This document shows positions 2,568-27,575 of a stretch of DNA of 64,000 nt, one piece after another (position 1 is the first letter of the stretch; each line of letters starts with the position of its first letter). The DNA lies in the NCBI GenBank assembly GCA_041650915.1, contig JBAZKE010000003.1, positions 85,226-149,225 of the forward strand. The letters run 5' to 3'. Under the pieces are notes generated by a model, which saw only the letters and a list, made by a program, of their open reading frames with translations, ran no database searches and was not told the DNA's origin. Made by a program: the position numbers and the translations under genes. This DNA comes from Patescibacteria group bacterium. GTDB taxonomy: Bacteria; Patescibacteriota; Patescibacteriia; UBA10025; JAHIVO01.

Positions 2568-3014
2568 ATGCAGAAAAAAGGTTTTACTCTTATTGAGTTA
2601 TTGGTGGTTATCGCAATTATCGGTATCTTGGCCACCATCGGTCTCGTCGCTCTGAACGGTGCGCGTGAAAAAGCGCGTGACGCAACCCGCAAGTCTGACC
2701 TTGGCCAGATCCGGACCGGACTCGTCCTGTACTCGGATGACAACGGTGGTGCGTTCCCGAATGTAACGGGTGAAACGTACGCGGTGCTTGACAGCTACCT
2801 CGTACCGACGTACATTTCGAAGGTTCCGTCTGATCCGCAGGCAACAGGCCAGTATACGTACGTAGAGTGCAATAGTGGGCTCACAACGCCGTACTACTAC
2901 CTGTATACTGAGCTCGAATCACCAGGCACTGGCGAGATTTACTGGCTCATGGGTGATGGCACAAATGATGAGCAGTATACCGGCACACTCGGCTGTACAA
3001 TGCAACCAGACTAG
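2568..3014 (+). CDS. pilA: Type IV major pilin (PilA-like) with an N-terminal prepilin cleavage/methylation motif
   Basis: Translation begins MQKKGFTLIELLVVIAIIGIL (G-1, F+1, E+5). An RBS AAAGGGGGTGG lies upstream of the ATG at 2568. The ORF-track start at 2496 is an in-frame upstream artefact. Confidence 0.85.
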   Translation: MQKKGFTLIELLVVIAIIGILATIGLVALNGAREKARDATRKSDLGQIRTGLVLYSDDNGGAFPNVTGETYAVLDSYLVPTYISKVPSDPQATGQYTYVECNSGLTTPYYYLYTELESPGTGEIYWLMGDGTNDEQYTGTLGCTMQPD

Positions 3015-3132
3015 TCAACTACCATCAGTTGAAATAAATGCAGAAAGCGCTCGATACTATTTCCGGGCGCTTTTTGTAATGTGCTGCTTCTGGTATACTT
3101 ACATGCAGATCGTAAGGCAGGATCGGGTTCTT

Positions 3133-4110
3133 ATGGAATCAGCGGATACGTGTGTCATTATACTCAATTGGAACGGGCTCAGGCACCTTGAGACCTGCTT
3201 GCGTGCGCTGGAACGGCAGAGCTACAAACGGTTTCGGACGATTCTCGTTGACAACGGTTCAAAGGACGGGTCACGAGAGTACGTCCAGAAGTGCTTCCCC
3301 GGCGTCGAGATAATCTCACTGCTCCGGAACCGAGGATTTGCGGAGGGCAACAACGTCGGCATCCGCGAAGCGCTCGCCGACAAAGGAGTCGCGTATATCG
3401 CGGTGCTCAATAATGATACGGAAGCCGACGCGCAGTGGCTGTATGAGCTCCGCGCCACTGCCAGTAAAGACGAACGCATCGGAGCCGTGAGCAGCAAGAT
3501 GCTCCGATTCGATGAGCGCACGGTGCTCGATTCAGCAGGGGACTTTTTCAAGGCGGGGACGCTCAAGGTCGTCACGAGAGGTTTCGGCAGGGAAGATAAG
3601 GGCCAGTACGACCGCGAGGAAGAGTGCTTCAGCGCGCGCGCTGGAGCCGCACTCTACCGCCGAAGCATGCTCGAGGATGTCGAGCTTGATGGAGATTTTT
3701 TCGACAGCCATTTTTTTGCATACGTCGAGGACACCGACCTGTCAGTCCGCGCTCGGCTGAAAGGCTGGAAAATAATGTATGCGCCAAAAGCTATCGTCTA
3801 CCACAAGGTGGCCGCAACGACGAGCACTATCTCATATGCTTTCAGGCGCTACCGTTCGGGCCGCAACAGGCTATTCCTGGCAATAAAAAATTATCCCCTC
3901 TCCTTGTGGCTGGGCGTTTTCCGCGGCACCGCATCGGTTGAAAAAGGCTATACCCTTGGCATTATTGGGAGCATTGCCACGTACATTCGCATCGCGTGCT
4001 CGCTTGTTTGCTCGCTGCCGCGGCTCGTACGGCAGCGGCGCGCGATCCAGCAATCCCGGGCCGTTTCAGCGGCAGCCATCGGCTCATGGCGCGAACGGTT
4101 TTCGATATAA
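3133..4110 (+). CDS. Family 2 glycosyltransferase (GT2)
   Basis: Translation contains CVIILNWNG...LVDNGSKDGS...AVLNNDTEAD, i.e. the DXD and GT-A fold motifs. The start was moved to ATG 3133 (alternative 3103) to avoid overlapping the pilin. Confidence 0.8.
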   Translation: MESADTCVIILNWNGLRHLETCLRALERQSYKRFRTILVDNGSKDGSREYVQKCFPGVEIISLLRNRGFAEGNNVGIREALADKGVAYIAVLNNDTEADAQWLYELRATASKDERIGAVSSKMLRFDERTVLDSAGDFFKAGTLKVVTRGFGREDKGQYDREEECFSARAGAALYRRSMLEDVELDGDFFDSHFFAYVEDTDLSVRARLKGWKIMYAPKAIVYHKVAATTSTISYAFRRYRSGRNRLFLAIKNYPLSLWLGVFRGTASVEKGYTLGIIGSIATYIRIACSLVCSLPRLVRQRRAIQQSRAVSAAAIGSWRERFSI

Positions 4111-4151
4111 GAATGCTACACAGCCGCCCGGCGATTTGATATACTGTACGC

Positions 4152-6146
4152 ATGCAACCCGTCGTCTTCACCGAGAGCAGCATCCGGTTCCGCCAGTATG
4201 TCGTACTGGGGATTTTTTTATTTCTCATCGTGCTCTCGTCCTTCTTCTCCGGAGAGTGGAATCGCTGGCTTCACGGCATCTTCATGGTCGTCAGCTTTCC
4301 GCTCGCCTTCTTTACCATGATGCTGCTGCGGGGAGAGCCCGATCGCAGGACGGCTGTTTCCGCTTGGAGGTCTCCTTTTTTTTATTTTTTCCTGTTCATG
4401 GCCATCGTCGCGGCCACTTCAGTTGTGTCCGTGCAGCTCTACGAGAGCATGCATCAGGCTACGCTGCTGCTGTGTTACGGTATTTTTTTCTGGGTTGCGG
4501 CGACGGTCCTTGGCAAACCGCTGTTCCTCAAGCTCACCTCAATCGTCATTTACTGTACGGGCATCATCGCAGCAATCGTCAGCTTGGTGCTGCTCATTAT
4601 CGATCCGGCACTGAGGGCGGGAGGCCTCCTCTACAATGCGAATGCGCTCGGCAGCTACCTGCTCTTCAGCCTGCTGCTTGGGATCGTTCTTGCGCTTTCA
4701 GCTGAGAAAAGGCGGAACAGGGCGCTGTTTTGGTTCGGCACGCTCGTATTACTCGGCAGCTTTTTACTGACGTTTTCTTTTACAGCCTGGGTGAGCATCG
4801 CCGTTCCGCTGGGCATTCTGGCATGGTTACAGCGAAAAAAAATTTTTACAAAAAAAGGGCTGCTCTTTTTCCTCATTGCTTTTACGGCACTCTTTACCGT
4901 TGCGGTCGGCGTACGGTACTTGAGATCAGGGAATTTTTTACACGCGCTCAAGATACATACGACAATCCCGGCCGAAGGCATTGCCGAGAGTTTTAACCAG
5001 CGCTTGAAGTTCATATCTTCGGCCGCTGAGATTTTTTATGACCACCCACTCACCGGCAGCGGGCTCGCTACGTACCAGGATGTGTATCCGCGGTACGCGG
5101 CGTCAGTTCTCGAGCAGCCGCGGTACGCGCACAACTACTACATCCAGCTCGCTGCCGAGGTCGGGTTTTTTGGGGTGCTCGCGTTTGTTGCGCTCATTAG
5201 TACGCTCCTGATCCGGTGCCGTGCGGCTGTCCGGCGCCTCGCCGGCGATTCCGCACGCTATCCCTACGCGCTCGGATTATCACTGGGGGTGCTCGCCTCG
5301 GCAATTCACGCCCTATTCGATTTTGGATGGCATTTTCCCGGCGTATTCGTACTTTTCTGGATTGCGGGCGGCATTGTGATTGCGCAGGGGGGGCAGGCCG
5401 ACGAGGGCAGGGCGCGGCATCCAGGCTCGAATCGTACTGCGGTCATTCTCTGCGTTTCCGTCGGCCTACTGCTCATGGCGCGGGGCATTACGTTAATTGC
5501 ATCAGAAGCATACTATGACAAAGCTGAGCGGCAGCGGTCGCTGGGGGGCATCAGTTATCCGCTCGAGCTGTATGCGCGCGCAGTGGCGTTTGATCCTTCG
5601 CCGACAAAGATGAAACGCCAAGCCGGCCTGCTGTATGAACAGGCAAACACGATTCCAGATTACAATCCCGGGAGTTTCTACGAGGCCGAGCGGGTGACGT
5701 TAGACGCGATGCAGTGGAGTGAGATTGATTGCTTCGGGTATAATCTTCTCGGCAGGATTTATTTTATACTCGAGGACTATGGAAGCGCTGAACGCGCTTA
5801 TCAGAAAGCGATCGAAATAAACCCGGTTTTCGAACCTGATTTTTACTATGATCTGGCCGCTCTCTACGGCAAGCAAGAAGATTATGTGGGCGCCGTAGCT
5901 ACTATTGAGAGCATACTCTCGCGGTACGGCGAAACGGTGAAGACGGCTAATCCAAAGCTGAAAACCGAGCTGTCTTTTCTCAATCTGCTCCTTGGGCAAT
6001 CCTACCGGGAACTCGGGGAGTACGACTCAGCAGAGCGTGCATTACAGCGGGCGCTCGAAATCGATTCCGCGTTTGAATTGGCAGCGCTGGAGCTCGCTGG
6101 CGTCCGGCAGGACCGGGCACGTCTAAACGGCGCCACTGATGAGTAG
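4152..6146 (+). CDS. Wzy_C / O-antigen-ligase-like polytopic membrane protein with a C-terminal TPR domain; candidate pilin O-oligosaccharyltransferase (TfpO/PglL-like)
   Basis: About 12 transmembrane helices. The Wzy_C signature RYAHNYYIQLAAEVGFFGVL is present. The C-terminal ~230 aa carry TPR-like repeats (AYQKAIEINP.., ALQRALEID). Location between two pilin genes. Confidence 0.65.
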   Translation: MQPVVFTESSIRFRQYVVLGIFLFLIVLSSFFSGEWNRWLHGIFMVVSFPLAFFTMMLLRGEPDRRTAVSAWRSPFFYFFLFMAIVAATSVVSVQLYESMHQATLLLCYGIFFWVAATVLGKPLFLKLTSIVIYCTGIIAAIVSLVLLIIDPALRAGGLLYNANALGSYLLFSLLLGIVLALSAEKRRNRALFWFGTLVLLGSFLLTFSFTAWVSIAVPLGILAWLQRKKIFTKKGLLFFLIAFTALFTVAVGVRYLRSGNFLHALKIHTTIPAEGIAESFNQRLKFISSAAEIFYDHPLTGSGLATYQDVYPRYAASVLEQPRYAHNYYIQLAAEVGFFGVLAFVALISTLLIRCRAAVRRLAGDSARYPYALGLSLGVLASAIHALFDFGWHFPGVFVLFWIAGGIVIAQGGQADEGRARHPGSNRTAVILCVSVGLLLMARGITLIASEAYYDKAERQRSLGGISYPLELYARAVAFDPSPTKMKRQAGLLYEQANTIPDYNPGSFYEAERVTLDAMQWSEIDCFGYNLLGRIYFILEDYGSAERAYQKAIEINPVFEPDFYYDLAALYGKQEDYVGAVATIESILSRYGETVKTANPKLKTELSFLNLLLGQSYRELGEYDSAERALQRALEIDSAFELAALELAGVRQDRARLNGATDE

Positions 6147-6206
6147 GGGCCTGCGGCGGTCGAATTGACTCATTGCGGGCGTGATATATACTGTACCTAT
6201 ACAGCC

Positions 6207-6710
6207 ATGGAAAACAAGCAACAGAGCGCGGTAAAATACAGGGGGTATACGCTCATTGAGCTGCTGGTAGTACTCGCGATTATTGGCATCCTCGTAACGA
6301 TCGGCCTCGTCAGCTTGCAAGGCACGCGCGAGAAAGCGCGCGACGCGCAGCGCGCAGCAGACCTGTCTCAGATGCGTCTCGGGCTCGCGCTGTACTTCCA
6401 TGACCACGAGCAGTATCCTACGCCCGCGAGCAGCAGCGGAGGCGGCCCTGATATCGGTTCCGAGCCCGCCGATGGCTCGATTTTTTCTCAGAACGGCAAT
6501 CCGCTGTACCCCGGATACGTGAGCAAAGTTTTCACCGATCCGATCAATAGCACCCAAACGGCGCTGTACTACGCGTACGATACGAATGAGAATATCAGGC
6601 ATGCAAACTACGTGCTCTGCTACCATCGAGAGGGCACTGACAAGCTCTGGTTCTATTACTACTCGACCGGCATTTACGGTGAGGGTGTCAGCTGCCCCAC
6701 GTTGCCATAA
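6207..6710 (+). CDS. Type IV pilin, second PilA paralog
   Basis: Translation MENKQQSAVKYRGYTLIELLVVLAIIGILVTIGL has the prepilin motif G|YTLIE. After it, REKARDAQRAADLSQ parallels pilin 1. Confidence 0.8.
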   Translation: MENKQQSAVKYRGYTLIELLVVLAIIGILVTIGLVSLQGTREKARDAQRAADLSQMRLGLALYFHDHEQYPTPASSSGGGPDIGSEPADGSIFSQNGNPLYPGYVSKVFTDPINSTQTALYYAYDTNENIRHANYVLCYHREGTDKLWFYYYSTGIYGEGVSCPTLP

Positions 6711-6723
6711 GAAAGAACTGCGT

Positions 6724-7146
6724 ATGCTACAAAAAAACAGGGCAGGGGTATCGATTCTCATTATTCTTATCTTTGTAGTTATTTTTGGTTTGCTCATCGG
6801 CGGGGGTTTCCTCCTCATCAACAGCGAGAAAGCAAAGACGCGTGATGCGAAGCGGCTGTCTGATATGACGAGGATTCAGGCTGCGTTTGAGTTTTTGTAT
6901 AATGATACGGCAAGCTATGAGGGGGCGGCTCTCGGGGGATGCGGCCAGCCGGGCATGCTCGTATCGCAGTGCAACCTAACCCAGTACCTTCCGACGCTGG
7001 CTGAGTTTATCGATCCGGGAACATACAGCTACACCGTCCAAAAGGCGCCCGACAGTGAGGGCTATGCTGTTTCATTTATGCTCGAAAAGAATTACGGCAG
7101 CCTCCGCGCAGGACCCCATACGCTCTCCCCGGAAGGGATCTTTTGA
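6724..7146 (+). CDS. Pilin-like small secreted protein with a hydrophobic N-terminus but no canonical G/F-x-x-x-E prepilin motif
   Basis: Translation MLQKNRAGVSILIILIFVVIFGLLIGGG..SEKAKTRDAKRLSDMTRIQAAFEFLYND mirrors the region after the N-terminus of the neighbouring pilins. There is no Glu at +5. Confidence 0.5.
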   Translation: MLQKNRAGVSILIILIFVVIFGLLIGGGFLLINSEKAKTRDAKRLSDMTRIQAAFEFLYNDTASYEGAALGGCGQPGMLVSQCNLTQYLPTLAEFIDPGTYSYTVQKAPDSEGYAVSFMLEKNYGSLRAGPHTLSPEGIF

Positions 7147-7257
7147 GCACAGGTAATTCGTGCGTTCGGTTATGCATGCAGTGGCGCACGCTTTTTTATC
7201 ATGCATGCTGCGTTTTTAAATACGGCCTCGTTCTGGTATACTATAAAATAGGTACGT

Positions 7258-8040
7258 ATGGATTTCACCTCTACACTTATTGTTTATATCGACGTATTCC
7301 TCATAGTATTGCTCGGCTTTGCCGTCGGCAGTTTTTTAAACGCCGTCATCTACCGTCTCCATGCGGGGGTGAGCTTTATGCGGGGGAGGTCGTACTGTCC
7401 CCGGTGCAAGCACGATCTCGCTGCGAAGGATTTGGTGCCGGTTGTCAGCTTTGTGCTGCTGCGCGGGAAGTGCCGGTACTGCCATAAGCCGATTTCATGG
7501 CAGTACCCCCTTGTTGAATTCAGTACGGCCGTGCTCTTCGTGCTCCTCTACGCACAGTTTGGGATCGGTGCCACTTTTTTTGTATACCTCGTCTATACCT
7601 GCTTCCTGATCGTTATTTTCGTTTACGACCTCAGGTACTACCTCATACTCGATAAGGTCAGCATTCCAGCGCTCGCGCTCGCGCTCATGCTTTCTTTAAC
7701 CGTATTGGACATCAGCATCCTGTCGGTCGTAATCGGCATGCTCATCGGAGGCGGTTTTTTCTTTTTGCAGCACGCGGTTTCGCGGGGGAAGTGGATCGGC
7801 GGCGGGGACATACGGCTCGGCATCGTCATGGGGGCCATGCTCGGGTGGGAGCACCTCCTCGTTGCGCTCTTCGGGGCGTACATCTTCGGATCCATCATCG
7901 GGATCGGGCTCGTCCTGTTCGGCAACAAGCGGTGGCGGAGCCAGGTGCCCTTCGGAACGTTTCTCACCGTAGCGACTTTCCTGACATTCCTCTGCGCCGA
8001 TCCGGTTGTGAGCATGTATAAGGATCTTTTTTTACTATGA
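7258..8040 (+). CDS. pilD: Prepilin peptidase / N-methyltransferase PilD (A24 family)
   Basis: N-terminal CPRC..CRYC zinc motif, a catalytic Asp in DLRYY, and the GGGDIRLG motif. Confidence 0.85.
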   Translation: MDFTSTLIVYIDVFLIVLLGFAVGSFLNAVIYRLHAGVSFMRGRSYCPRCKHDLAAKDLVPVVSFVLLRGKCRYCHKPISWQYPLVEFSTAVLFVLLYAQFGIGATFFVYLVYTCFLIVIFVYDLRYYLILDKVSIPALALALMLSLTVLDISILSVVIGMLIGGGFFFLQHAVSRGKWIGGGDIRLGIVMGAMLGWEHLLVALFGAYIFGSIIGIGLVLFGNKRWRSQVPFGTFLTVATFLTFLCADPVVSMYKDLFLL

Positions 8041-8744
8041 ACCTGCCCGACAAGAGAGGTTTCACGTTAACGGAATTGCTGATCGTTATTTCGATTATCG
8101 GACTGTTTAGTGCGATCGTGATGGTGAACTTCCGGCATGGCAGGGAGTCCGATGAATTCCGGCGCGTGTCGACCGAGCTGCACCAAAATTTCCGGCTTGC
8201 TCAGAATTACAGCATCGGCGGAAACAGCATCAAGTATTGTGAGCGCAGCTCGACCGACCATGAGTTCTACCCTTGCGAGGACAACTCTTACTGCAACCTC
8301 GGCGTCGGTCCGTGGGATCCCGAATATGAGTGCAAGGCAGCGGTTCCGCTCGGCGGGTACGGGATTAATGTTAGATCTACTGAGCGGTACACGCTCTTTG
8401 GAGATACGACGGCGGACCACCTGCTGACCGACAGCACGGAGGATTTCATCATCGTTGAAAATAACGTATTCACGAAGGGAGTGCACATAGAGAGTTTTCG
8501 GTTCGGTACGGCCGATCCGGCAACGCCTTCGTCCGAGAATACCCTCGATGTTACGTTTACGCCGCCCACCGGTACGATGAATTTTTACCTCAACGGGGCG
8601 GAGGCGATCGACGACGATGCAGAGCCGTACTTTACGCTCGAACTGCTCCTCGGCAGCGACTTCATTGAGGGGAGCTGCAGGAAGGTAAGTTTGCACAGGA
8701 TCTCAGGGCAGATCAGTGAAGACATGAGTTCATGCAACTGGTAA
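8037..8744 (+). CDS. Minor pilin / pseudopilin (prepilin-type N-terminus)
   Basis: Translation begins MNLPDKRGFTLTELLIVISIIGLF. The start overlaps the pilD stop (ATGA), which suggests translational coupling. Confidence 0.75.
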   Translation: MNLPDKRGFTLTELLIVISIIGLFSAIVMVNFRHGRESDEFRRVSTELHQNFRLAQNYSIGGNSIKYCERSSTDHEFYPCEDNSYCNLGVGPWDPEYECKAAVPLGGYGINVRSTERYTLFGDTTADHLLTDSTEDFIIVENNVFTKGVHIESFRFGTADPATPSSENTLDVTFTPPTGTMNFYLNGAEAIDDDAEPYFTLELLLGSDFIEGSCRKVSLHRISGQISEDMSSCNW

Positions 8745-8746
8745 CT

Positions 8747-9454
8747 ATGCACACGGCGCACCATAATCAAAGCGGGCAGACATTACTGGAGCTCATTATT
8801 GCGATTACCGTGCTCGTTGTCGCGCTCGTAGCCACGATCGTCCTGATCGTCACGAGCATCAATGCGAGCAGGGAAGCCCGCAATAAGCTCATTGCCACCA
8901 ACCTCGCACGCGAAGGCGTTGAAACCGTCCGAAACGTGCGGGATAGCAACTGGATCGATCCGACGATGCAGTGTGATGACCCGAACTGCGATAATCAAGC
9001 TGACTGCACTGACTCTGCCCAGTGCGATTCGACGTGGGGCATCAGTCAGTGGGATCGGGAGCTGCGGACTGACGACGCGGCTGCCACAATCAAGACGACC
9101 GCCATACCGGTCGTTGGCGATCCGAGCATTCATTCGCCACTCTCATTTTTACCCGATGATTTTAGCGAGACCGAATATTCGCGCTTACGGCGCACCGATG
9201 AAGGATTCTTGCAGGGAGGCGCGTCTATCGTCGGCAATTCTGAGTTCTACCGGATGCTCTACCTGTATCCGATTTGCCAGAATGCTGCCGGTGACCAGGA
9301 ATACGGCACCGATAATACGTCCGCAAACGATTGTCCCACCGCGGGGTATGCCGAGGTGGGCATACAGGTGGTCTGTGAAGTGCGATGGGGGCAGCACGAT
9401 TCGAATAAAAAGGTGATTATTGAGGATCAGCTGTACAATTGGCAAACGCTCTAA
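8747..9454 (+). CDS. Minor pilin, Cys-rich (prepilin-type N-terminus GQTLLELIIAI)
   Basis: Translation MHTAHHNQSGQTLLELIIAITVLVV. The C-terminal half is Cys-rich (QCDDPNCDNQADCTDSAQCDSTW). Confidence 0.65.
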   Translation: MHTAHHNQSGQTLLELIIAITVLVVALVATIVLIVTSINASREARNKLIATNLAREGVETVRNVRDSNWIDPTMQCDDPNCDNQADCTDSAQCDSTWGISQWDRELRTDDAAATIKTTAIPVVGDPSIHSPLSFLPDDFSETEYSRLRRTDEGFLQGGASIVGNSEFYRMLYLYPICQNAAGDQEYGTDNTSANDCPTAGYAEVGIQVVCEVRWGQHDSNKKVIIEDQLYNWQTL

Positions 9455-9475: not shown

Positions 9476-10228
9476 GTGCATCAGGCAATCAAAAACAGCA
9501 AGCAGGGAGGATTTACGCTCATCGAGATGATCGTTGCGCTGTCGATTTTTGTCATGATCATCTTGATCGTCGTGAACGTTTTTGTCGTCATCAACAACAC
9601 ACAGCGGAAGACCGTCGCGATGCAACGCGTGCAGGATGACGTACGGTACCTGCTCGAAGCTGTTGCGCAGGAGATTAGGCTCGGCACGATCAACTATGCG
9701 CACTACGGTGACATGGAGTACGATTTGCACGAACTCGATACTGAAGGGGAGTTTGTACTCGCACTCACGAATCAGGCGGATGAACAGATTTTTTTCAGGC
9801 GGAGCCCCGGCGCTCTCGGGCCGGGAACCGGCACGAAAGTTCAGTACTGTTCAGAAGCCGGCACAGGCGTGTGCGATGAGGAGGCCGGTACCGGCTGGTA
9901 CGATATAACGCCCGAGTCGGTTGAAATCACGAATCTGCGTTTTATCATCACGCCGAGCGCTGATCCGATGGCCGAGGCGGCAGAAACGGCGTGCGCCGAT
10001 GACGGCGACTGTGACGATGCAGGCCTATTCTCATACCGCTGCGATAGTGGCGGGGACGATACGTGCCACTATTCCACGGACGGGGGAAATTTCCAGCCCA
10101 AGGTGCGCATTGTATTCCAGGCGCAGACTGATGATGCCAGGATTTCCGAATCGCAGCGGCAGATTTCCATCCAGACGACGATTTCTTCACGGATCATGTC
10201 GGGCAGGGCGATAAACATGAATTACTAA
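9476..10228 (+). CDS. Minor pilin / pseudopilin (GGFTLIEMIVAL)
   Basis: Prepilin motif G|FTLIE followed by a hydrophobic helix. The C-terminus is acidic and Cys-containing. Confidence 0.7.
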   Translation: MHQAIKNSKQGGFTLIEMIVALSIFVMIILIVVNVFVVINNTQRKTVAMQRVQDDVRYLLEAVAQEIRLGTINYAHYGDMEYDLHELDTEGEFVLALTNQADEQIFFRRSPGALGPGTGTKVQYCSEAGTGVCDEEAGTGWYDITPESVEITNLRFIITPSADPMAEAAETACADDGDCDDAGLFSYRCDSGGDDTCHYSTDGGNFQPKVRIVFQAQTDDARISESQRQISIQTTISSRIMSGRAINMNY

Positions 10229-10231
10229 CGT

Positions 10232-11695
10232 ATGGAGACCAGGACACATCAGCATGGCATCGCGCTCCTCTATTCGCTCCTCGTGATTTCACTCTTTACG
10301 GCTATCGCGATTACCATCTCAATCATCGTCATCAATGAGCTCAAGCTCACCGCCAGCTCGACCGATGCGACGGTCGCATACTATGCGGCGGAGTCCGGCA
10401 TTGAACGGGGTCTCCATACCGTGCAGCTCGCGCGCGCTGATTCCACGAAGACGCTCCAGGATGCGGTTGATGAGGTTGGGCAGCTCAGCGCAGACCTCGA
10501 CTGGAGCAAAGCCAGCTATACCGATGAGGACAGCCAGAAGGCGACGTCGCGCATTGAGCACGTTGAGGTCAAGGAGTATGAGTACATACAGGCTGACTAC
10601 TATGACGTAAGCAGCCCGCTGGATCCAACAGACGGCGTGGTCGTCAGGACGCTCATGGTCGTCAATGGCGATGGAATAACCAATCCCGACGCGGCTTCGT
10701 ACGCAGAGGTTTCGTGGACGGCGTGGAACAGCAACGGCTTGCTCGAGTCGTCAGCGAGCGCCCGCAAGGTCATCGGGCCGTCTGATCTCGAGGAGGGGTG
10801 GACGCTCGATTTGCAGGCGCCATACTCGGACACCTTTATTCCCGTCGGGTACCGCGTCAGGGTCAAGGCCCTCCTCGGCGATTTGTCGGACGTAACGCTG
10901 ACTCCCCGGAAGGCTGACGGCAATGAGCTGTCGGATGATGAGCTCCCGTCCCAGCTGCAGATCAAATCAATCGGGACGTACAGGAATTTCAAGCAGTCGC
11001 TCACCGCTACCGTTCCGTGGAAGGTGCCGCTCTTCGGGCTGTATGACTACGTGCTGTTCAGCGAGAGCACTATTTTGAAAGATATCGTCCTGAGCGCGCC
11101 GACATACTCGTCCGGCGTTATCCATCCGGAAGCAAACATACCGACCAATCAGATGTGCAATCTATCGCCCTGCGACGGCAGCTGTGAATCGACTTGGGAT
11201 TGGCAGGGGTGGTGCCCGTCCGGGTCAACGCGGATGGCATGCTACGGTTCGGCGCAGGGAGCATACCCGCCGTTTCCTCCCGGGACGTGCGCGATGGGGG
11301 CAGAGTTAGAAATGTACGGTTTTGTCCTGCCGATGCCCGATACCGTGCCCCAGGGTGATGAGTACTACGTTTCGCTGAGAATGCACTACCACTATAACAA
11401 TGCCCTGAGCGATGGCCAGGATCGCGACCTCTCGGTGAGCATCAGCGGCCAGTCAATCATCGTCAATGACCAGAAACCTGGAGAGACCGAGGTATGGCAT
11501 ACGTGCACGATTCCGGAAACGTTTTCGCTTGGCGACCCCGCGCTTCCGGAAACGGATCAGTCGCGCACGATCGAGTTTGCGGTACACCCGTATGGAGACG
11601 AGACGGTACCCGGGACCGGGTGGGAAGCGGAGGATTTTATTACGGTAGATTGGTACCAGCTGAGCACGTACAAGGTATTCCCCGACTGTGAATAG
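10232..11695 (+). CDS. Large PilX-N-domain minor pilin (tip or adhesin candidate)
   Basis: The N-terminus QHGIALLYSLLVISLFTAIAITIS resembles a PilX_N-type pseudopilin helix. 487 aa, with a Cys-rich C-terminal region containing CESTWDWQGW. Confidence 0.55.
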   Translation: METRTHQHGIALLYSLLVISLFTAIAITISIIVINELKLTASSTDATVAYYAAESGIERGLHTVQLARADSTKTLQDAVDEVGQLSADLDWSKASYTDEDSQKATSRIEHVEVKEYEYIQADYYDVSSPLDPTDGVVVRTLMVVNGDGITNPDAASYAEVSWTAWNSNGLLESSASARKVIGPSDLEEGWTLDLQAPYSDTFIPVGYRVRVKALLGDLSDVTLTPRKADGNELSDDELPSQLQIKSIGTYRNFKQSLTATVPWKVPLFGLYDYVLFSESTILKDIVLSAPTYSSGVIHPEANIPTNQMCNLSPCDGSCESTWDWQGWCPSGSTRMACYGSAQGAYPPFPPGTCAMGAELEMYGFVLPMPDTVPQGDEYYVSLRMHYHYNNALSDGQDRDLSVSISGQSIIVNDQKPGETEVWHTCTIPETFSLGDPALPETDQSRTIEFAVHPYGDETVPGTGWEAEDFITVDWYQLSTYKVFPDCE

Positions 11696-19279: not shown

Positions 19280-20353
19280 ATGATAATTAAAAATATGCAA
19301 CAAGTACGATTTCCGCGGGATGAGCAGCAGCACAACCACATTATCGAGTGGTGGTACTGGAACGGGCACCTTGTCGACGGAAGAGGAAACCGCTATAGCT
19401 ACATGAATTGCCTGTTCAGGGCGGACATTAAGCGGGTCAATTTTCCCTTTTTAAAGGGGGTGCAGCGGCTGCCTTTCCGGACGGTATTTTTTTCTCATTC
19501 GCTCCTGACTGACATCGGGAAAAAGAAATTCTACCCGCGCATCGAGTACGTCGCGACAGTATCGAAAGACAGCTTCACGAGGCCGCTGCTCTACGTTAAC
19601 TACGCCGACCCGATTATCGTCGACGGGTACGTCAATAAGGTCATGGAGGAACCCGAACTTTTTACCTACCGCATCAAGAACGAGGATATCGACCTCAATC
19701 TCACCTCGAAGAAGCCGCCGCTCCTTGAGGGGGGCAAGGGCTACGTCAATCTGGTCGGCGATCGGAGCACGTACTACTATTCGCTTACGGACTTGAGGAC
19801 AGCGGGGCACATCCGCGTAGGCAAAAAGCTGATTCCGGTCATCGGCAAGTCGTGGATGGACCATCAGTGGGCGAATATCCCGTACGAAAAAAATAAGTGG
19901 AACTGGTTTTCGTTCCAGCTCGATAATAATATTGAGGTCATGGCGGTCGAGTACGGGCGGCATGGCAAGAAAACAAAGCTCGCGAGCGTTTGTTATAAAA
20001 GCGGCAAGCAGTTGCACAGCGATGCGGTCCGCATCACGCCGGTCGGCAGGGCCTGGGTCAGCCCGAAGACAAAAGCCCGGTACCCGCTCGAATGGCGCGT
20101 TGAGTTGCCGGCGATCGGCATAGAGCTCACTGCCAAAGCGCCCGTTAAGCAGCAGGAGATGCTGTACGGCACGCTCAACTACTGGGAAGGCCCGCTCGAT
20201 GTCACCGGAACGGTGGAGGGAACTTCGGTTTCCGGACTCGGCTTCTGCGAGCTCGTCGGGTACGAATCGGAGTTCGATAACATGAAGTTCATACGGACTT
20301 CGCTTACGGAGCTGATCCGGAGCGGGTACGATTATCTCGTCCACATGCGGTAA
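19280..20353 (+). CDS. AttH/CrtC-like lipocalin-fold protein (COG5621-like)
   Basis: The motif HNHIIEWWYWNGHL is characteristic of the AttH / hydroxyneurosporene-synthase-like family. 357 aa. Confidence 0.55.
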   Translation: MIIKNMQQVRFPRDEQQHNHIIEWWYWNGHLVDGRGNRYSYMNCLFRADIKRVNFPFLKGVQRLPFRTVFFSHSLLTDIGKKKFYPRIEYVATVSKDSFTRPLLYVNYADPIIVDGYVNKVMEEPELFTYRIKNEDIDLNLTSKKPPLLEGGKGYVNLVGDRSTYYYSLTDLRTAGHIRVGKKLIPVIGKSWMDHQWANIPYEKNKWNWFSFQLDNNIEVMAVEYGRHGKKTKLASVCYKSGKQLHSDAVRITPVGRAWVSPKTKARYPLEWRVELPAIGIELTAKAPVKQQEMLYGTLNYWEGPLDVTGTVEGTSVSGLGFCELVGYESEFDNMKFIRTSLTELIRSGYDYLVHMR

Positions 20354-21033
20354 TGAAGTCATTTCCAGAACAGCAGCGTGAGCTATTCGACAAGCTTGAG
20401 CAGGGCAGCGTGCGTGCTACGTCTATTGCAATGATCAGGGACTACACGCGGGAAACCCGGATGTGCCTGACCGGCATTGCGTTCGTGCCCCAGAGCATGC
20501 GGCCGGAGATCAGCGCCCGCGTGATTGAGCCTCTCAGGGAGCGTGATGCCCGGCAGCACTACTATCCTCCGGAGTCACTGCACGTGACCATTCAGAATGT
20601 ACGCCGTTCCAGCGATCCGCCGCGATTTACTCCTGATACTGTCGCACGGGCACGGGAGGTTTTTCGGAGCGTGGTACCGCGGCACCGGCGGTTCTCATTC
20701 GAGCTCCGCGGGCTGTTCGAGATGCCGGCGAGCCTTTCGGTCCGCGCGTACTCCGATGAAGCGCTTGGGGACCTGGTTTTTGACCTGCGTGATTCGCTGC
20801 GGGCGGCGGGCATTCCCGATGATAAGCAATACGCTCCGGGCGGTGCGGTATTCGGCAACTGCACGGTATGCCGGTTTACGCGGAAGCCGAACGCCGGCTT
20901 TGCCGCGGTGGTGCGCGAGCTGAAGCAGGCGCCCGTCGGTACGTTTGAAGTCGCTGACGTTTCGCTCAAAACGACCAATGCCGTATGCGATTCGAGCGTG
21001 ACCGCGGTGATCGGGCGGTTTCCGCTCCAGTAG
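20353..21033 (+). CDS. Hypothetical protein (single H-x-T motif; weak 2H-phosphoesterase-like)
   Basis: The start overlaps the upstream stop (TAATG). Only one HVTI motif is present, so assignment to the LigT family is not supported. Confidence 0.4.
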   Translation: MKSFPEQQRELFDKLEQGSVRATSIAMIRDYTRETRMCLTGIAFVPQSMRPEISARVIEPLRERDARQHYYPPESLHVTIQNVRRSSDPPRFTPDTVARAREVFRSVVPRHRRFSFELRGLFEMPASLSVRAYSDEALGDLVFDLRDSLRAAGIPDDKQYAPGGAVFGNCTVCRFTRKPNAGFAAVVRELKQAPVGTFEVADVSLKTTNAVCDSSVTAVIGRFPLQ

Positions 21034-21119
21034 GTTTGTGTACGCGCAGCCTGCCTTGCGTGAAACGGGATATTGTTTTACACTGAACTGGAATAATTTA
21101 ATACGTTAATAAAAATACC

Positions 21120-22439
21120 ATGGACAGGACCAAGGTAATCATTATGGGAGCCGCTGGGCGGGACTTCCATGATTTTAACGTGTACTTCCGCTCCAAGTCT
21201 GCGTACGAGGTGGTGGCCTTTACCGCTACGCAGATTCCGAACATTGAAGGCCGTTTGTACCCTCCGAGCTTGAGCGGGAAGCGCTATCCACAGGGGATTC
21301 CGATTGAGCCTGAGAGCAAGCTCACCGAGCTTATCAAAAAGCACGGCGTCGAGCAGGTTTTTCTGTCGTACTCCGATCTGCCGCACCAGGTCGTGATGAA
21401 TAAGGCGTCGGAGGTGCTGGCGGCGGGCGCAGATTTCCGGCTCCTCGGGCCGAACCACACGTTCGTAAAATCGAAGAAGCCGCTCGTGTCGGTCTGCGCA
21501 GTCCGGACGGGCTGCGGCAAGAGCCAGACGTCGCGTCGTGTCGTTGAGTACTTTAAGGAGAAGGGGAAGAAGGTCGTCGCTATCCGGCATCCGATGCCGT
21601 ACGGCGATCTCGCCAAGCAGGCAGTGCAGCGCTTCGCGAAGTATGAGGATTTTGAGAAGCATGAGTGTACGATTGAAGAGCGCGAGGAGTACGAGCCGTA
21701 TGTGGAACAGGGGCTCGTCATCTATGCGGGCGTTGACTATGAGAAAATCCTGCGAAAGGCCGAGAAGGAGGCGGATGTGATTATCTGGGACGGCGGCAAC
21801 AACGACCTGCCGTTCTACAAGCCCGACGTGCACATCGTCGTCGCGGATCCGCACCGTGCGGGCCATGAATATGGGTACCATCCCGGAGAGACGAATTTCA
21901 GGATGGCAGACGTGATCGTCATCAACAAGATTGATTCGGCCGATCCGGCGAAGGTCAAGGCGGTCGAGGAGAGCGCGAAGCGGCTCAATCCGAAAGCGGT
22001 CCTGATCAAGGCGAATGCCCCCTATACGGTTTCTGATGAATCGTTGATTCGCGGCAAGCGCGTGTTGGTCGTCGAGGACGGCCCCACGCTGACGCACGGC
22101 GAGATGCGGTACGGCGTCGGTGTGGTCGCGGCAAAAAAATTCGGGGCGAAAGAGCTTGTTGATCCGCGGCCGTTCGCCGTCGGGTCGATACAGGCGACAT
22201 TTAAGAAATTCGGCCACTTGACGGACCTTCTCCCGGCGATGGGGTACAGCGACCGGCAGGTGAAAGAGCTCGAGGAGACGATCAATGCGAGCGACGCGGA
22301 CTCCGTCGTGGTCGGCACGCCGATCGACCTCACGAGACTGCTCAAGATCAATAAGCCTGCGACCAGGATCAGCTACACCATGAAAGAAATCGGCAGCCCG
22401 ACGCTTGCCGAAGTGCTGGACAAGGCCGCGCTTGTTTAA
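21120..22439 (+). CDS. P-loop NTPase-like protein (Rossmann-like N-terminus plus a GCGKSQT Walker-A-like motif; cyclic-2,3-diphosphoglycerate-synthetase/DUF1611-like)
   Basis: The sense-strand translation has coherent motifs. The longer antisense ORF is Arg-rich junk. Confidence 0.4.
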   Translation: MDRTKVIIMGAAGRDFHDFNVYFRSKSAYEVVAFTATQIPNIEGRLYPPSLSGKRYPQGIPIEPESKLTELIKKHGVEQVFLSYSDLPHQVVMNKASEVLAAGADFRLLGPNHTFVKSKKPLVSVCAVRTGCGKSQTSRRVVEYFKEKGKKVVAIRHPMPYGDLAKQAVQRFAKYEDFEKHECTIEEREEYEPYVEQGLVIYAGVDYEKILRKAEKEADVIIWDGGNNDLPFYKPDVHIVVADPHRAGHEYGYHPGETNFRMADVIVINKIDSADPAKVKAVEESAKRLNPKAVLIKANAPYTVSDESLIRGKRVLVVEDGPTLTHGEMRYGVGVVAAKKFGAKELVDPRPFAVGSIQATFKKFGHLTDLLPAMGYSDRQVKELEETINASDADSVVVGTPIDLTRLLKINKPATRISYTMKEIGSPTLAEVLDKAALV

Positions 22440-22458
22440 ATCAAATACGTACGTTTCG

Positions 22459-22488
22459 ATGCCCCCGCCACGCAGGTGGCGGGGGCAT
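22459..22488 (+). terminator. Strong 13-bp hairpin (ATGCCCCCGCCAC-GCAG-GTGGCGGGGGCAT)
   Basis: A perfect inverted repeat directly after the stop at 22439. It has no clean T-run. Confidence 0.5.
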
Positions 22489-22492
22489 GTTA

Positions 22493-22520
22493 TTGACGTG
22501 TTTTTCCAACGGGGTACAAT
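22493..22520 (+). promoter_or_regulatory. Sigma70-like promoter (TTGACG, 16 nt, TACAAT)
   Basis: Read directly; upstream of the ArsR-type regulator. Confidence 0.4.
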
Positions 22521-22792
22521 AGAGAAGGACGACTTCCCTATAGATGCTTTGTTGGATACGCGTAGGACGCGGAAGGAGTCCACAGTCATTGTTCATTTCT
22601 GATTGGGATGATGGTATTAGGAAGTTCCGGAAAGCGCAACGCGGTCTTGTTGCCCGCAGTTCGATTTCCGTGAGGGCGGTGTCTTGCACACACTGCCCTC
22701 ATATTTTTTTTGGAATGCACGTTTTGACAGTTTTGCAAATCCGCCGTACCGTTCCAGTACTTGCTCAAGAACTCAATTTTTCATCCATCCAT

Positions 22793-24504: not shown

Positions 24505-26355
24505 ATGCAAAAAGACACGAAAACATTAGAGAAAATCGCGCGGCTCGTCCGCCGGTGGATACTCCAGTCGACGACCGAGGCAGGGTCAGGGCACCCGACG
24601 TCATCCCTGTCGGCGACTGATTTGATGGTTGCGCTCATGTTCGGCGGTGTTTTTCGGTTCGATGCCGCCAATCCCCAGCACCCCAATAACGACCGGCTTA
24701 TTTTTTCCAAGGGGCACGCTTCCCCGCTTTTTTACGCGCTCTGGGCCGCAACCGGCGCATTCCCGGCCGATGAGCTCATGACGCTCCGGAAATTCGGGAG
24801 CAGGCTCGAGGGGCACCCGACCATGGAATTCCCCTTTACGGAGGCTCCGACCGGTTCGCTCGGGCAGGGGCTGTCTGTCGGCGTCGGCATCGCGCTCAAC
24901 GGGAAGTACGTCGACAAGCTGCCGTACCGCACGTACGTGCTGCTCGGGGACAGCGAAATGGCAGAGGGGCAGGTATGGGAGGCGATACAGTCGGCCGCGC
25001 ACTACGAGCTCGATAACCTCGTCGGCATTATCGACGTCAACCGGCTCGGCCAGCGTGGCGAGACGATGTACGGCCACGACGTGAAGGCGTACGAAAAGCG
25101 CATCGCAGCGTTCGGCTGGCAGACCATCGCCATCGACGGCCACTCGGTCTCGCAGGCAGCCGAGGCGTTCAGCATGGCTTCCAAGGTGCGCAAGAAGCCG
25201 ACCATGATTATCGCGAAGACCGTGAAGGGCAAGGGGGTCCCATCCCTCGAGGATAAGGATGGCTGGCACGGCAAAGCCTTGAAGCCCGAAGAGCTCGAGC
25301 AGGCGCTTGCGGAGATCGGCAGCGTAGACGAGTCGGTCCGCGGCGCGGTCGCGGTTCCGGAGGAGGCAGAGCTCGCCAGCGCCGAGGCTGGACCGCAGCC
25401 CGCCCCAGCGTTTGATAAGCCGATCAGCACGAGAAAGGCGTACGGCAACGCGATCGTCCGAATTTTCCCGATGTTTCCGGACATGGTCGTGCTCGATGCG
25501 GAGACGGGCAACTCGACGTACGCAGAGTTGTTTAAAGAGGCGCACCCCGGCCGTTTTTTCGAAATGTACATCGCGGAGCAGAACATGGTGGGAGCCGGCA
25601 TCGGTTTCTCATCGCGCGGCAAGATTCCGTTCATTTCGACCTTCGCCGCGTTCCTCGCGCGCAGTTATGACCAGGCGCGGATGGCAAGCTATTCGCAGGC
25701 GAATATCAAAATCGTGGGGTCGCACGCGGGCGTATCCATCGGGCAGGACGGCGTGTCGCAGATGGGATTGGAGGATTTGGCGATGTTCCGGGCGCTTCAT
25801 GGCAGCGTGGTGCTGTACCCGTGCGACGGCGTTTCGACCGACAAGCTCGTCGAACAGGCGGCGAAGCATAAGGGCTTGGTGTATATCCGCACGACCAGGG
25901 CAGACACGCCGATCATTTATGACAGCAATGAGCAGTTCCCGATCGGCGGGAGCAAGACGCTGCGCTCGAGCGCACATGATGCCGTTACCGTCGTCTCCGC
26001 GGGCATCACGCTCCACGAAGCGCTGAAAGCGCATGATGAGCTGAAAAAGCAAGGCATTTCAATTCGAGTAATAGATTTGTACAGCATTAAGCCTATTGAT
26101 GAAGCAATCCTCCAAAAAGCAGGGAAAGAAACAAAAGCAATCATTACCGTGGAAGACCATTATCCGCAGGGCGGGTTGGGTGAAGCAGTGCTGAGCGCGT
26201 TAAGGCATGCGAAAGTGCATGTTGTTAAACTGGCAGTAACAAAAATGCCGAAGAGTGGGAAACCGAATGAATTGCTGGATTTTGAAAGCATTTCACAGAG
26301 TGCTATCGTGAAGGCAGTAAATGGTATCATAAATCCCCAGTATAAGAGTAATTAA
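24505..26355 (+). CDS. tkt: Transketolase (single polypeptide)
   Basis: TPP-binding GDSEMAEGQVWEA, and a pyrimidine-binding domain plus a C-terminal domain. The 3' ~300 nt are markedly AT-rich. Confidence 0.9.
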   Translation: MQKDTKTLEKIARLVRRWILQSTTEAGSGHPTSSLSATDLMVALMFGGVFRFDAANPQHPNNDRLIFSKGHASPLFYALWAATGAFPADELMTLRKFGSRLEGHPTMEFPFTEAPTGSLGQGLSVGVGIALNGKYVDKLPYRTYVLLGDSEMAEGQVWEAIQSAAHYELDNLVGIIDVNRLGQRGETMYGHDVKAYEKRIAAFGWQTIAIDGHSVSQAAEAFSMASKVRKKPTMIIAKTVKGKGVPSLEDKDGWHGKALKPEELEQALAEIGSVDESVRGAVAVPEEAELASAEAGPQPAPAFDKPISTRKAYGNAIVRIFPMFPDMVVLDAETGNSTYAELFKEAHPGRFFEMYIAEQNMVGAGIGFSSRGKIPFISTFAAFLARSYDQARMASYSQANIKIVGSHAGVSIGQDGVSQMGLEDLAMFRALHGSVVLYPCDGVSTDKLVEQAAKHKGLVYIRTTRADTPIIYDSNEQFPIGGSKTLRSSAHDAVTVVSAGITLHEALKAHDELKKQGISIRVIDLYSIKPIDEAILQKAGKETKAIITVEDHYPQGGLGEAVLSALRHAKVHVVKLAVTKMPKSGKPNELLDFESISQSAIVKAVNGIINPQYKSN

Positions 26356-26477
26356 AGAACATTACTTTTATTGCCTATATTAGTGAAGTTTAATACAAGC
26401 TATATAGGGTGATATCTATTAAGATATCACATATATAGGAATCTTGACTTTTCTATATACATAGGTATAATAGGTAT

Positions 26478-27563
26478 ATGAATAAGAACATTCAACCAAG
26501 CAGACCACCAAAGCTTCCTGCTATTCTAAATCCAAAGATTTTTTTTAATGAATTAGCAGATGCAGAAAATACTTTAGGATTGCTTGAGGGGTTACAAAAT
26601 TCATTACAAAATCCTGGGTTACTTATTGCACCACTGTCAGCTAAAGAGGCAACTGTAAGTTCAAAGATAGAGGGAACGCAAAGTACTGCTTCCGATGTAT
26701 TTATTTATGAAGCTAGTGGGGTAGAACGGAAAGTTGATACCGCAGAAGTTGCTAACTATCGGAAGGCAATCCTTTATGCTATTGAAGAGTTATCTTCTAA
26801 GAAGCCATTCTCTCTCCATCTCATTAAAAGACTTCATCAACAATTATTAACTGGTGTTCGACATAAGGGGGCGATTGGGCAATTTAGAAATAAACAGGTA
26901 TATATCGCAGAGAAGCAAAGTGATCCGATCGAGAAAGCCATTTATATCCCACCGATTCATTTATTACTGGTAGATTACATGGAGAATTACCTAAATTATT
27001 TAAATACAAGCTCTGACCGGACATTAGTACAAATGGCCGTCTCTCATTATCAGTTCGAGGCAGTTCATCCATTTGAAGATGGCAATGGGCGTATTGGACG
27101 ATTATTAATTCCATTGTTGCTTTTTCACAAATCAAAACTGACGTTGCCGATTATTTATATGAGCGGTTATTTTGAAGAAAACCGTGACCAGTATATAAGT
27201 GCTCTACATTTGGTTGATACACAAGGAGCTTATGATAAATGGATCGCTTTCTTTTGCCGGGCCGTTGCCTCACAAACTAAAGAAACGATTCAACTAATTA
27301 ATCGGATAAATAAATTACATGAAGAAGTGATGCAAAAGGTTGGAAATTTGAAGTCGCCATATATTTATAAGGTGGTCGATGCGATTTTTAAATATCCTGT
27401 CTTTACTAAGAGCAGGATTGTTCAAGAAACTAAGGCGACATATTTAACTGCAAGCAAGCTAATTGATGTATTAAAGTCACATGGGTATGTTAATGAGTTG
27501 AGTTATCGAGACGGGCGGAATAAGTTATTTGTATTTGGTCATTTACTTTCAATTATTCGTTAA
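26478..27563 (+). CDS. Fic family protein (AMPylase-type Fic domain)
   Basis: Canonical Fic motif HPFEDGNGRIGR. The gene lies in a ~1.5 kb low-GC segment with its own strong promoter (TTGACT, 16 nt, TATAAT) and an operator-like palindrome GTGATATC-N6-GATATCAC. Confidence 0.85.
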   Translation: MNKNIQPSRPPKLPAILNPKIFFNELADAENTLGLLEGLQNSLQNPGLLIAPLSAKEATVSSKIEGTQSTASDVFIYEASGVERKVDTAEVANYRKAILYAIEELSSKKPFSLHLIKRLHQQLLTGVRHKGAIGQFRNKQVYIAEKQSDPIEKAIYIPPIHLLLVDYMENYLNYLNTSSDRTLVQMAVSHYQFEAVHPFEDGNGRIGRLLIPLLLFHKSKLTLPIIYMSGYFEENRDQYISALHLVDTQGAYDKWIAFFCRAVASQTKETIQLINRINKLHEEVMQKVGNLKSPYIYKVVDAIFKYPVFTKSRIVQETKATYLTASKLIDVLKSHGYVNELSYRDGRNKLFVFGHLLSIIR

Positions 27564-27575
27564 TTTAATATTTAA

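Follow-up and report, generated by a model that had tools for sequence, protein, structure and literature searches.

A Wzy_C/TPR protein encoded among type IV pilin genes in Patescibacteria: a candidate pilin O-oligosaccharyltransferase

Type IV pili (T4P) are the best-supported host-attachment organelles of Patescibacteria. In a 64,000-nucleotide stretch of a Patescibacteria genome (contig JBAZKE010000003.1; hereafter the window), a complete T4P operon contains a block of four genes at positions 2568-6710, all on the + strand, in which two prepilin genes flank a family 2 glycosyltransferase (GT2) and a 664-aa membrane protein with an O-antigen-ligase (Wzy_C) domain and C-terminal tetratricopeptide repeats (TPR). 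The block raises the question of whether the pilus is glycosylated by an enzyme encoded in its own operon, and the original prediction read the four genes as a pilin O-glycosylation cassette. In the main experimental study of T4P in Patescibacteria, pilin glycosylation was only predicted computationally and was described as "unexplored", and no transferase was named (PMC11623550). In addition, literature searches (Patescibacteria with T4P and O-antigen ligase; TPR with O-oligosaccharyltransferase, O-OTase) returned no description of such an arrangement.

In this study, the 664-aa protein, the adjacent pilins and their gene neighborhoods in related genomes were analyzed. The 664-aa protein is probably, with considerable room for doubt, a pilus-dedicated O-OTase-type ligase that acts on the outer face of the membrane, where it transfers a polyprenyl-pyrophosphate-linked glycan to pilins. 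The locus would most likely encode a pilin O-glycosylation system of a known kind, not previously described in this lineage and context; it represents no new mechanism, as there are precedents for its chemistry, for the adjacency to pilins and for the combination of Wzy_C with TPR. If this assignment is right, Wzy_C-type protein O-glycosylation would be extended to the candidate phyla radiation (CPR) and to monoderm-type T4P. The features of the block and of the third pilin-like gene that follows it are given below.

2568-3014, + strand: pilin 1, a 148-aa prepilin (N_methyl, E=5e-9; IV_pilin_GFxxxE; leader MQKKG/FTLIELL)
3079/3133-4110, + strand: GT2 glycosyltransferase (PF00535, E=4.5e-22)
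4152-5501, + strand: Wzy_C/WaaL-fold membrane domain of the 664-aa protein (residues 1-450, 13 transmembrane, TM, helices)
5121-5174, + strand: signature RYAHNYYIQLAAEVGFFG, residues 324-341, with the putative catalytic His327 (codon 5130-5132)
5502-6146, + strand: extracytoplasmic C-terminal TPR domain of the 664-aa protein (residues ~451-664)
6207-6710, + strand: pilin 2, a 167-aa prepilin (N_methyl, E=3.5e-8; leader ...KYRG/YTLIELL)
6414-6488, + strand: αβ-loop of pilin 2, Ser/Thr/Pro/Gly-rich, YPTPASSSGGGPDIGSEPADGSIFS, residues 70-94
6724-7146, + strand: pilin 3, pilin-like, 140 aa, with a hydrophobic N-terminus and a EKAKTRDAKRLSD motif; conserved in all loci

The 664-aa protein and its relatives

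The 664-aa protein matches Wzy_C (PF04932) over residues 196-346 with 69.3 bits, against a gathering cut-off of 31.7, and the same family was matched by all five orthologs scanned (best E=2e-23). TPR_1, TPR_2, TPR_8 and other TPR families score above their cut-offs over residues ~488-660. The Wzy_C signature and the TPR domain were therefore correctly recognized in the original prediction, as were both prepilin genes and their coordinates. The exact protein, encoded on a 273-kb metagenome-assembled-genome contig of a Patescibacteria group bacterium, is named O-antigen ligase family protein by NCBI; no NCBIfam equivalog was found for it, the best match, IctB, being far below cut-off. Its orthologs form an isolated family (n=27 full-length, 29-44% identity), beyond which the score falls from 242 to 49 bits at the next Wzy_C proteins. 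An AlphaFold model built on the 27 orthologs (predicted local distance difference test, pLDDT, 88.2; predicted template modeling score, pTM, 0.87) shows helical repeats at residues 468-658, and the fold of the membrane domain is WaaL-like. WaaL is the closest solved structure and, at ~14% identity, the only PDB sequence match for the membrane-domain profile, whereas a full-length profile was swamped by TPR proteins.

Among the conserved residues are those expected of a ligase-type active site. In a hidden Markov model (HMM) alignment to WaaL of Cupriavidus metallidurans (CmWaaL; PDB 7TPG/7TPJ), R284 corresponds to R265, H327 to H313 and P299/G302/G304 to P280/G283/G285. The sequence EQPRYAHNYY is invariant around H327 and aligns with EHAHN of CmWaaL, and within RYAHNYYIQLAAEVGFFG the residues R324, Y325, H327, N328, E336 and G338 are invariant or nearly so in the 27 orthologs. 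E35/W36, R155/N162/N164, R255, R284, H327 and D390/W393, all on the outer face, are invariant in the same set. An Arg/Arg/His set is common to WaaL and PglL, EcWaaL R288/H338 being equivalent to NmPglL R298/H349 (PMC3643930), and the equivalent His is essential in WaaL, PglL, TfpM and PglS, for which the Arg residues are likewise reported as essential (PMC3643930, PMC9829042, PMC12800693). Furthermore, an acidic residue one loop past the His is also essential, namely E404 in PglL and E379 in PglS (PMC3643930, PMC12800693). The invariant D390, which occurs as H386-x3-D390, lies one outer loop beyond H327, at a position where CmWaaL has Gln. The topology was derived from a positive-inside count over the short loops of the 27 orthologs, which gave 9.2 Lys/Arg inside versus 2.9 outside; this bias indicates an N-in arrangement with 13 TM helices, placing all of the invariant polar residues and the TPR domain (451-664) outside.

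An exhaustive profile search of the wider family yielded 149 cluster representatives at E<=1e-30. A C-terminal TPR domain is carried by 130 of the best 150 family representatives, and the monoderm S-layer O-OTase WsfB has already been described as Wzy_C with a C-terminal TPR (PMC2943079), so that the TPR module, which had been expected to set the system apart, does not distinguish it. The long members of the family are GT2-Wzy_C-TPR, WecG/TagA-Wzy_C-TPR or tandem Wzy_C-Wzy_C-TPR proteins. WecG/TagA enzymes act on undecaprenyl-pyrophosphate-linked GlcNAc (Und-PP-GlcNAc), and the GT2 domains of the fusions share 40-51% identity with those found in fusions to Bac_transf priming phosphoglycosyltransferases. 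These fusions and similarities suggest that the subfamily is tied to polyprenyl-pyrophosphate-linked (Und-PP-glycan) donors. Tandem proteins of 1047-1144 aa are found among P0192, P0205, P0246, P0251 and P0259, and the FolD-Wzy_C-TPR fusion seen in one relative may be an artefact of gene calling.

Two out-groups differ in their surroundings. P0034 (locus L021, 2649-9449) is a Wzy_C+TPR protein of 740 aa and 25% identity that is encoded directly after three tandem pilA genes in an unrelated high-GC organism with Myxococcota-type pilins. Downstream of it are a 295-aa protein and an ATP-binding cassette (ABC) transporter pair, presumably similar to M. xanthus pilGHI; YfhO, UDP-glucose dehydrogenase, methyltransferase, GT2 and PMT_2 genes are also present in the locus, which looks like an independent pilin/Wzy_C+TPR pairing. 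P0030, a relative without TPR, is encoded in an ordinary polysaccharide cluster from which pilin genes are absent.

Gene order and the variable slot

Related loci were collected by exact-protein look-up of the orthologs and from GTDB species representatives, and gene order was read by comparing the window proteins with all open reading frames. L009 and L010 duplicate L002 and L003, and the counts refer to 17 distinct loci. In each of the 17, two of them from Kerfeldbacteria genomes, the Wzy_C/TPR gene has pilin genes around it, and this linkage holds for L018, L019 and L024, where the identity of the ligase is only 29-35%. In loci long enough to show it, the conserved order is PilB, response regulator, PilC, pilin 1, a variable slot, Wzy_C/TPR, pilin 2, pilin 3, PilD, three minor pilins, a large protein and LigA. 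The arrangement of pilin genes near the ligase differs in the three most divergent loci: pilin 2 is missing from L018, is replaced by a second pilin 1-like gene in L019 and is represented in L024 by a pilin 2-like gene upstream of the ligase. The ligase gene follows a pilin gene directly in L002/L009, L018, L019 and L024 and elsewhere follows pilin 1 and the cargo of the slot, always in the same orientation. The conserved unit is pilin-Wzy_C/TPR-pilin-pilin-PilD, that is, a ligase among pilins. Co-occurrence of the four genes as a block had been proposed, and it holds for the linkage of the Wzy_C/TPR gene to pilin genes (17/17) but not for the GT2, which is missing in four of the 17 loci and replaced or expanded in others; the GT2 is therefore variable cargo and the four-gene block is not the unit.

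Four third-party-annotation metagenome-assembled-genome records (L009, L010, L013 and L015) are titled 'uncultured Gammaproteobacteria bacterium' but show the pilus-operon synteny of Patescibacteria, and are apparently mislabeled.

Within the window, a promoter/terminator scan found no terminator between the four block genes. Promoter-like sites at 2289-2317 (before pilin 1) and 6165-6192 (before pilin 2) are consensus matches only and thus weak evidence. The start of the GT2 at 3133 fits better than the gene-caller start at 3079, as the orthologs are 323-324 aa long. Against NCBIfam, a WbbL-type rhamnosyltransferase, EpsD and HpsE were matched weakly, all below cut-off, and the PDB matches were to generic GT2 only. 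The GT2 is accessory cargo, the Wzy_C/TPR gene being the core, and it probably extends a lipid-pyrophosphate-linked glycan on the cytoplasmic face.

The slot carries no gene in L002/L009, L018, L019 and L024, and a single GT2 in the window and in ten other loci. In L005, from a Kerfeldbacteria genome, a PMT_2/PMT gene of the GT-C type (5787-6977, 396 aa) is inserted between pilin 1 and the GT2; by analogy with TfpW, it could provide a second, polyprenyl-monophosphate-dependent route of glycosylation. An IS200-like Y1 transposase (7225-7809; PF01797, E=1.5e-11) lies between the GT2 and the Wzy_C/TPR gene in L004, and a GIY-YIG gene lies just after pilin 1 in L025 (886-1179), so that mobile elements occupy the same slot. 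In L023 and L025, the slot contains Wzm, Wzt (with a Wzt_C or methyltransferase domain), methyltransferases and several GT2s, with GT4s in L025, and this cassette of nine genes ends in a GT2-Wzy_C-TPR fusion of 985-988 aa. The flanks of L025 are exactly those of the window, through LigA, GatC, GatA and a response regulator, which places a 9-kb cassette inside the pilus operon. Full-length orthologs of the window GT2 occur within these cassettes (325 bits in L023; 48% identity and E=8e-109 in L025). The slot is a variable glycan island, of which the window carries the minimal, one-GT2 form, and the related loci offer a natural series, with no insert at one end, a single GT2 in between and a complete Wzm/Wzt cassette at the other end.

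Pathways that depend on an ABC transporter polymerize the chain in the cytoplasm and use no Wzy polymerase. As such a Wzm/Wzt pathway does not need Wzy, the Wzy_C enzyme of the L023/L025 cassette is expected to be the ligase. Wzm/Wzt export, terminal methylation and WsaB as ligase are likewise combined in the model of S-layer glycosylation in Geobacillus (PMC2943079).

Candidate acceptors and competing explanations

Pilins 1 and 2 are paralogous (47% identity over 109 aa, E=2e-27), and pilins 1, 2 and 3 each form a separate ortholog group. The duplicated major pilin of the original prediction thus stands only as far as paralogy is concerned: pilins 1 and 2 belong to a set of three pilin-like paralogs that diverged long ago and are not products of a recent major-pilin duplication. 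In pilin 1, the first ~55 residues are near-identical across orthologs and the C-terminal half, or head, is variable, the pattern expected of a major pilin; pilin 1 is likely to be the major pilin and a candidate glycan acceptor. Pilin 2, the globular domain of which is well conserved, is also a candidate. Pilin 3 (53-62% identity among five orthologs) lacks Glu5, a canonical G/F site and a Pfam match. It is always directly upstream of PilD and follows pilin 2 or, in L018 and L024, the Wzy_C/TPR gene.

A Ser/Thr-rich C-terminal acceptor region had been suggested, and it was not borne out. Pilin 2 ends in ...PTLP, and a Thr or Ser tail is present in only five of its 12 orthologs. The pilin alignments led to rejection of a TfpO-type C-terminal acceptor, and because the C-termini are rarely Ser/Thr the logic of TfpO/TfpM does not apply. 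The candidate sites lie in the αβ-loop instead. Where α1 ends, pilins 1 and 2 both have a conserved [YF]-P that is closely followed by Ser/Thr, and the YPTPASSSGGGPDIGSEPADGSIFS segment of pilin 2 keeps the pattern [YF]PxP...GxGPDxS...G[ST]IFS across orthologs. In an AlphaFold2 model of pilin 2 (pLDDT 82.7), α1 is a helix at residues 16-67 and the candidate segment is a coil directly after it, in which residues 71-80 have the lowest model confidence anywhere in the globular part (pLDDT 69); this agrees with the plausibility of pilin acceptors, as weak evidence. A fold search with pilin 2 gave no significant match (best E=0.84, Thermus TTHA1222) and indicates no more than a pilin-like protein. 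The Ser run of pilin 2 falls at ~62-64 in mature numbering, which we take to be the same region as Ser63 of Neisseria PilE. The αβ-loop of pilin 2 is the best candidate acceptor segment and is compatible with an internal site of the PglL/PglS type, an assignment that is weak and drawn from alignment and modeling.

From the domains, fold, conserved residues, topology, linkage, variable slot and fusions established above, a mechanism can be proposed in which the donor chemistry, the acceptor protein, its site and the part played by the TPR domain are inferred. The glycan would be assembled on a polyprenyl-pyrophosphate carrier at the cytoplasmic face by the adjacent GT2 together with a priming transferase and an exporter encoded elsewhere, and would then cross the membrane. 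Before the pilus is assembled, the WaaL-fold domain would transfer the glycan en bloc to the hydroxyl group of a Ser or Thr in a pilin still anchored in the membrane, with R155/R255/R284 binding the pyrophosphate, H327 acting as the base and D390 assisting. The TPR domain, held outside by the 13th TM helix beside the catalytic loop, may capture the globular domain of the pilin or, alternatively, the pilus machinery; such a role would have a parallel in PglL and PglS, whose additional periplasmic domain at the C-terminus has been proposed to recognize internal sequons. The likeliest acceptor would be the flexible αβ-loop just after α1, in pilin 2 and/or pilin 1.

Several observations weigh against the assignment as a pilin O-OTase. 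Sequence alone does not separate O-OTases from WaaL ligases or some polymerases (PMC3643930), and the correspondence of D390 to PglL E404 and PglS E379, although suggestive of an OTase-like site, is one of spacing only. A permissive Pfam scan of the five orthologs gave no match at E<=10 to Wzy_C_2 or to PglL_A (PF15864), the motif by which PglL is told apart from WaaL. Strict membership of PglL was consequently rejected, and the 664-aa protein stands outside the PglL family in the strict sense; of the profile matches that had been anticipated, Wzy_C and TPR were recovered and PglL was not. On the acceptor side, pilin 1-type proteins end in Ser/Thr in ~1/17 cases, their alignment has no conserved Ser/Thr column, and Ser/Thr in the αβ-loops (10/12 observed, against ~60% by chance on our own estimate) is about as frequent as in an ordinary loop. 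Furthermore, L002/L009, L018, L019 and L024 are without any glycosyltransferase in the operon, and no priming phosphoglycosyltransferase, flippase or ABC exporter was found within the 64-kb window. The idea of a pilin-linked Wzy_C enzyme therefore survives in its fold, its linkage and its plausible acceptor loops, and not in the part given to the GT2 or in the details borrowed from PglL and TfpO.

Among characterized systems, PglL (Neisseria) and PglS (Acinetobacter baylyi, with ComP) share Wzy_C, a WaaL-like fold, the Arg cluster and the catalytic His with the 664-aa protein, as well as frequent adjacency to pilin genes, possibly an acidic residue one loop past the His (matched by spacing only) and, for the candidate acceptor sites, an internal rather than C-terminal position. 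PglL homologs adjoin pilin genes in 21 of 31 cases (PMC3643930). PglS also has 13 TM helices and a C-terminal periplasmic domain, which TfpM lacks. However, the C-terminal domain here is a TPR array, analogous and not homologous to theirs, in a protein without PglL_A or Wzy_C_2; moreover, the host is a monoderm-type CPR bacterium, in which the ligase gene belongs to the constant core of the pilus operon. TfpO (PilO) and TfpM of Pseudomonas, Acinetobacter and Moraxella are similarly pilus-dedicated Wzy_C enzymes encoded beside the presumed pilin substrate in the same orientation, but they are 420-470 aa long without a C-terminal domain, compared with 664 aa and a 214-aa TPR domain here. They modify the C-terminal Ser/Thr of the upstream pilin, a residue that the pilins of this locus do not present, and tfpO is strain-variable whereas the present ligase gene is universal in its clade.

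The closest precedents in monoderms are WsfB (Paenibacillus alvei) and WsaB with WsaA (Geobacillus stearothermophilus), in which the TPR is C-terminal (WsfB) or a separate partner (WsaA), and which share Wzm/Wzt export, terminal methylation and GT2-type rhamnosyltransferase-like enzymes with L023 and L025. Compared by description only, these belong to S-layer glycan (slg) clusters and target the S-layer protein (Tyr in P. alvei), whereas the present gene is flanked by pilins in a T4P operon. TfpW, which acts on group IV pilins of P. aeruginosa, and the TMTC/PMT GT-C enzymes are also pilin-adjacent or TPR-bearing membrane glycosyltransferases that modify protein outside the cytoplasm; they belong to another GT-C subfamily, use polyprenyl-monophosphate sugars and do not have the WaaL fold, so the resemblance is one of logic only.

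The most serious competitor, unlikely but far from negligible, is a general extracytoplasmic glycan ligase with a main acceptor other than pilin (an S-layer or surface protein, the cell wall or a lipid), which would merely be co-located or co-expressed with the pilus genes. It has in its favor the WsfB-like architecture, the weak evidence for acceptor sites in the pilins, the resemblance of the Wzm/Wzt and methyltransferase cassettes of L023 and L025 to S-layer and O-polysaccharide pathways, and the generality of PglL-type enzymes, which are not confined to the product of a neighboring gene (PMC3643930). Yet the gene stays among pilins and upstream of PilD in 17/17 loci, down to 29% identity and even where the slot is empty, and all of the loci are T4P operons in which no S-layer gene or other obvious acceptor gene is linked to the ligase. 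The unrelated P0034 is also pilin-adjacent, and a general enzyme would probably still act on pilins. A Wzy-type polymerase, or an enzyme that both ligates and polymerizes, making a surface polysaccharide needed by the pilus while the protein remains unmodified, is improbable. The Pfam family covers polymerases too, there is no NCBIfam equivalog to decide the matter (IctB being far below cut-off) and P0030 sits in a polysaccharide cluster; nevertheless, the Wzx flippase and the Wzz chain-length regulator with which a Wzy O-antigen polymerase works are encoded in none of the loci, the L023 and L025 enzymes sit in Wzm/Wzt pathways that use no Wzy polymerase, the fold and Arg/His residues match the ligase WaaL, and four loci carry the enzyme without a nearby glycan-synthesis gene.

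The same four loci would suit a non-catalytic pilus assembly factor, in which the TPR domain scaffolds pilins or the machinery in the manner of PilF/PilW and Wzy_C is a mere membrane anchor. The gene indeed forms part of the operon core, in contrast to tfpO of Pseudomonas, which varies between strains, and one ortholog is labeled 'O-antigen ligase/Tfp pilus assembly protein PilF' by JGI. We consider this very improbable, since all 27 orthologs keep the outward-facing residues of catalytic type (R155, R284, H327 and D390), glycan-synthesis cassettes and glycosyltransferase fusions are attached to the ligase gene, and a PilF-type pilotin serves an outer-membrane secretin, for which none of these loci has a gene. 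The PilW model scored 27.5 bits against a cut-off of 154 and PilF (2FI7) ranked 59 among generic TPR matches, and a PilF-like role was judged unlikely on these scores. Scarcely credible, finally, is a classical WaaL that joins O-antigen to lipid A-core, despite WaaL being the closest solved structure and only PDB sequence match and despite the NCBI name. WaaL has 12 TM helices, no TPR, a lipid A-core acceptor and Gln at the position of the invariant D390; the ligase gene is outside any core-lipopolysaccharide (LPS) locus, and no lpx or waa genes are present in the 64-kb window. To our knowledge, Patescibacteria are generally described as having neither LPS nor an outer membrane, and a substrate for WaaL is thus not expected.

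For the preferred assignment as a pilin O-OTase, the locus supplies a concrete candidate enzyme, with H327, R284 and D390 as mutable residues and three candidate substrates encoded adjacent to it. If correct, it would also support the view that O-OTases recognize their acceptors through an extracytoplasmic domain at the C-terminus, in this case a TPR array, which is of practical interest for bioconjugate-vaccine enzymes. A bolder extension, which we regard as rather doubtful, is that the ligase is an obligatory built-in component of a pilus carrying long, Wzm/Wzt-exported, methyl-capped chains resembling O-polysaccharide, with the slot as a fast-evolving island that sets the host or phage specificity of the episymbiont. 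The pilus would then be sheathed in glycan, unlike proteobacterial pili with their short oligosaccharides. In the same vein, the TPR-ligase might couple glycosylation to pilus assembly, or modify a partner other than pilin at the base or tip of the pilus.

Other genes of the operon and the window

The block is preceded by PilB, a response regulator and PilC, and is followed by pilin 3, PilD, three minor pilins and a 487-aa protein, after which comes LigA. The remaining operon genes are as follows.

7-573, + strand: PilB pilus extension ATPase, C-terminal part, cut by the window start (full gene 583 aa, MshEN and T2SSE; upstream in all loci)
603-995, + strand: single-domain response regulator (Response_reg) between PilB and PilC, in the same place in every related locus reaching that far
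1041-2246, + strand: PilC platform protein (T2SSF_N and T2SSF; orthologs at 460-640 bits in all loci reaching that far)
7258-8040, + strand: PilD prepilin peptidase (A24_N_bact, E=2e-32; Peptidase_A24, E=4.5e-15)
8037-8744, 8732-9454 and 9476-10228, + strand: three minor pilins, N_methyl in each, the second with a weak Tt1218-like match; order kept in all loci
10232-11695, + strand: 487-aa protein closing the pilus operon, without a Pfam match (orthologs of 440-528 aa in the same position in all loci)

The 487-aa protein is possibly a large tip protein, an adhesin or a minor-pilin-associated protein. The lone receiver gene between pilB and pilC is fixed in all related loci and a second response regulator follows GatA; the presence of response regulators at the pilus locus suggests phospho-control of pilus extension. 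The rest of the 64-kb window is occupied by housekeeping genes, namely pentose-phosphate and glycolysis genes and a ribosomal protein operon. Sizeable genes without a Pfam match lie at 19280-22589 and 30649-32085 (226, 439 and 439 aa on the source contig; L006, 5849-7935 and 16145-17464), and a 352-aa AttH-domain protein is encoded just upstream. The GC content dips to 0.40, compared with ~0.55 elsewhere, at 26001-28000, over a Fic_N+Fic gene (26478-27563, 361 aa) flanked by transketolase and phosphofructokinase, which is possibly a horizontally acquired toxin or AMPylase gene.

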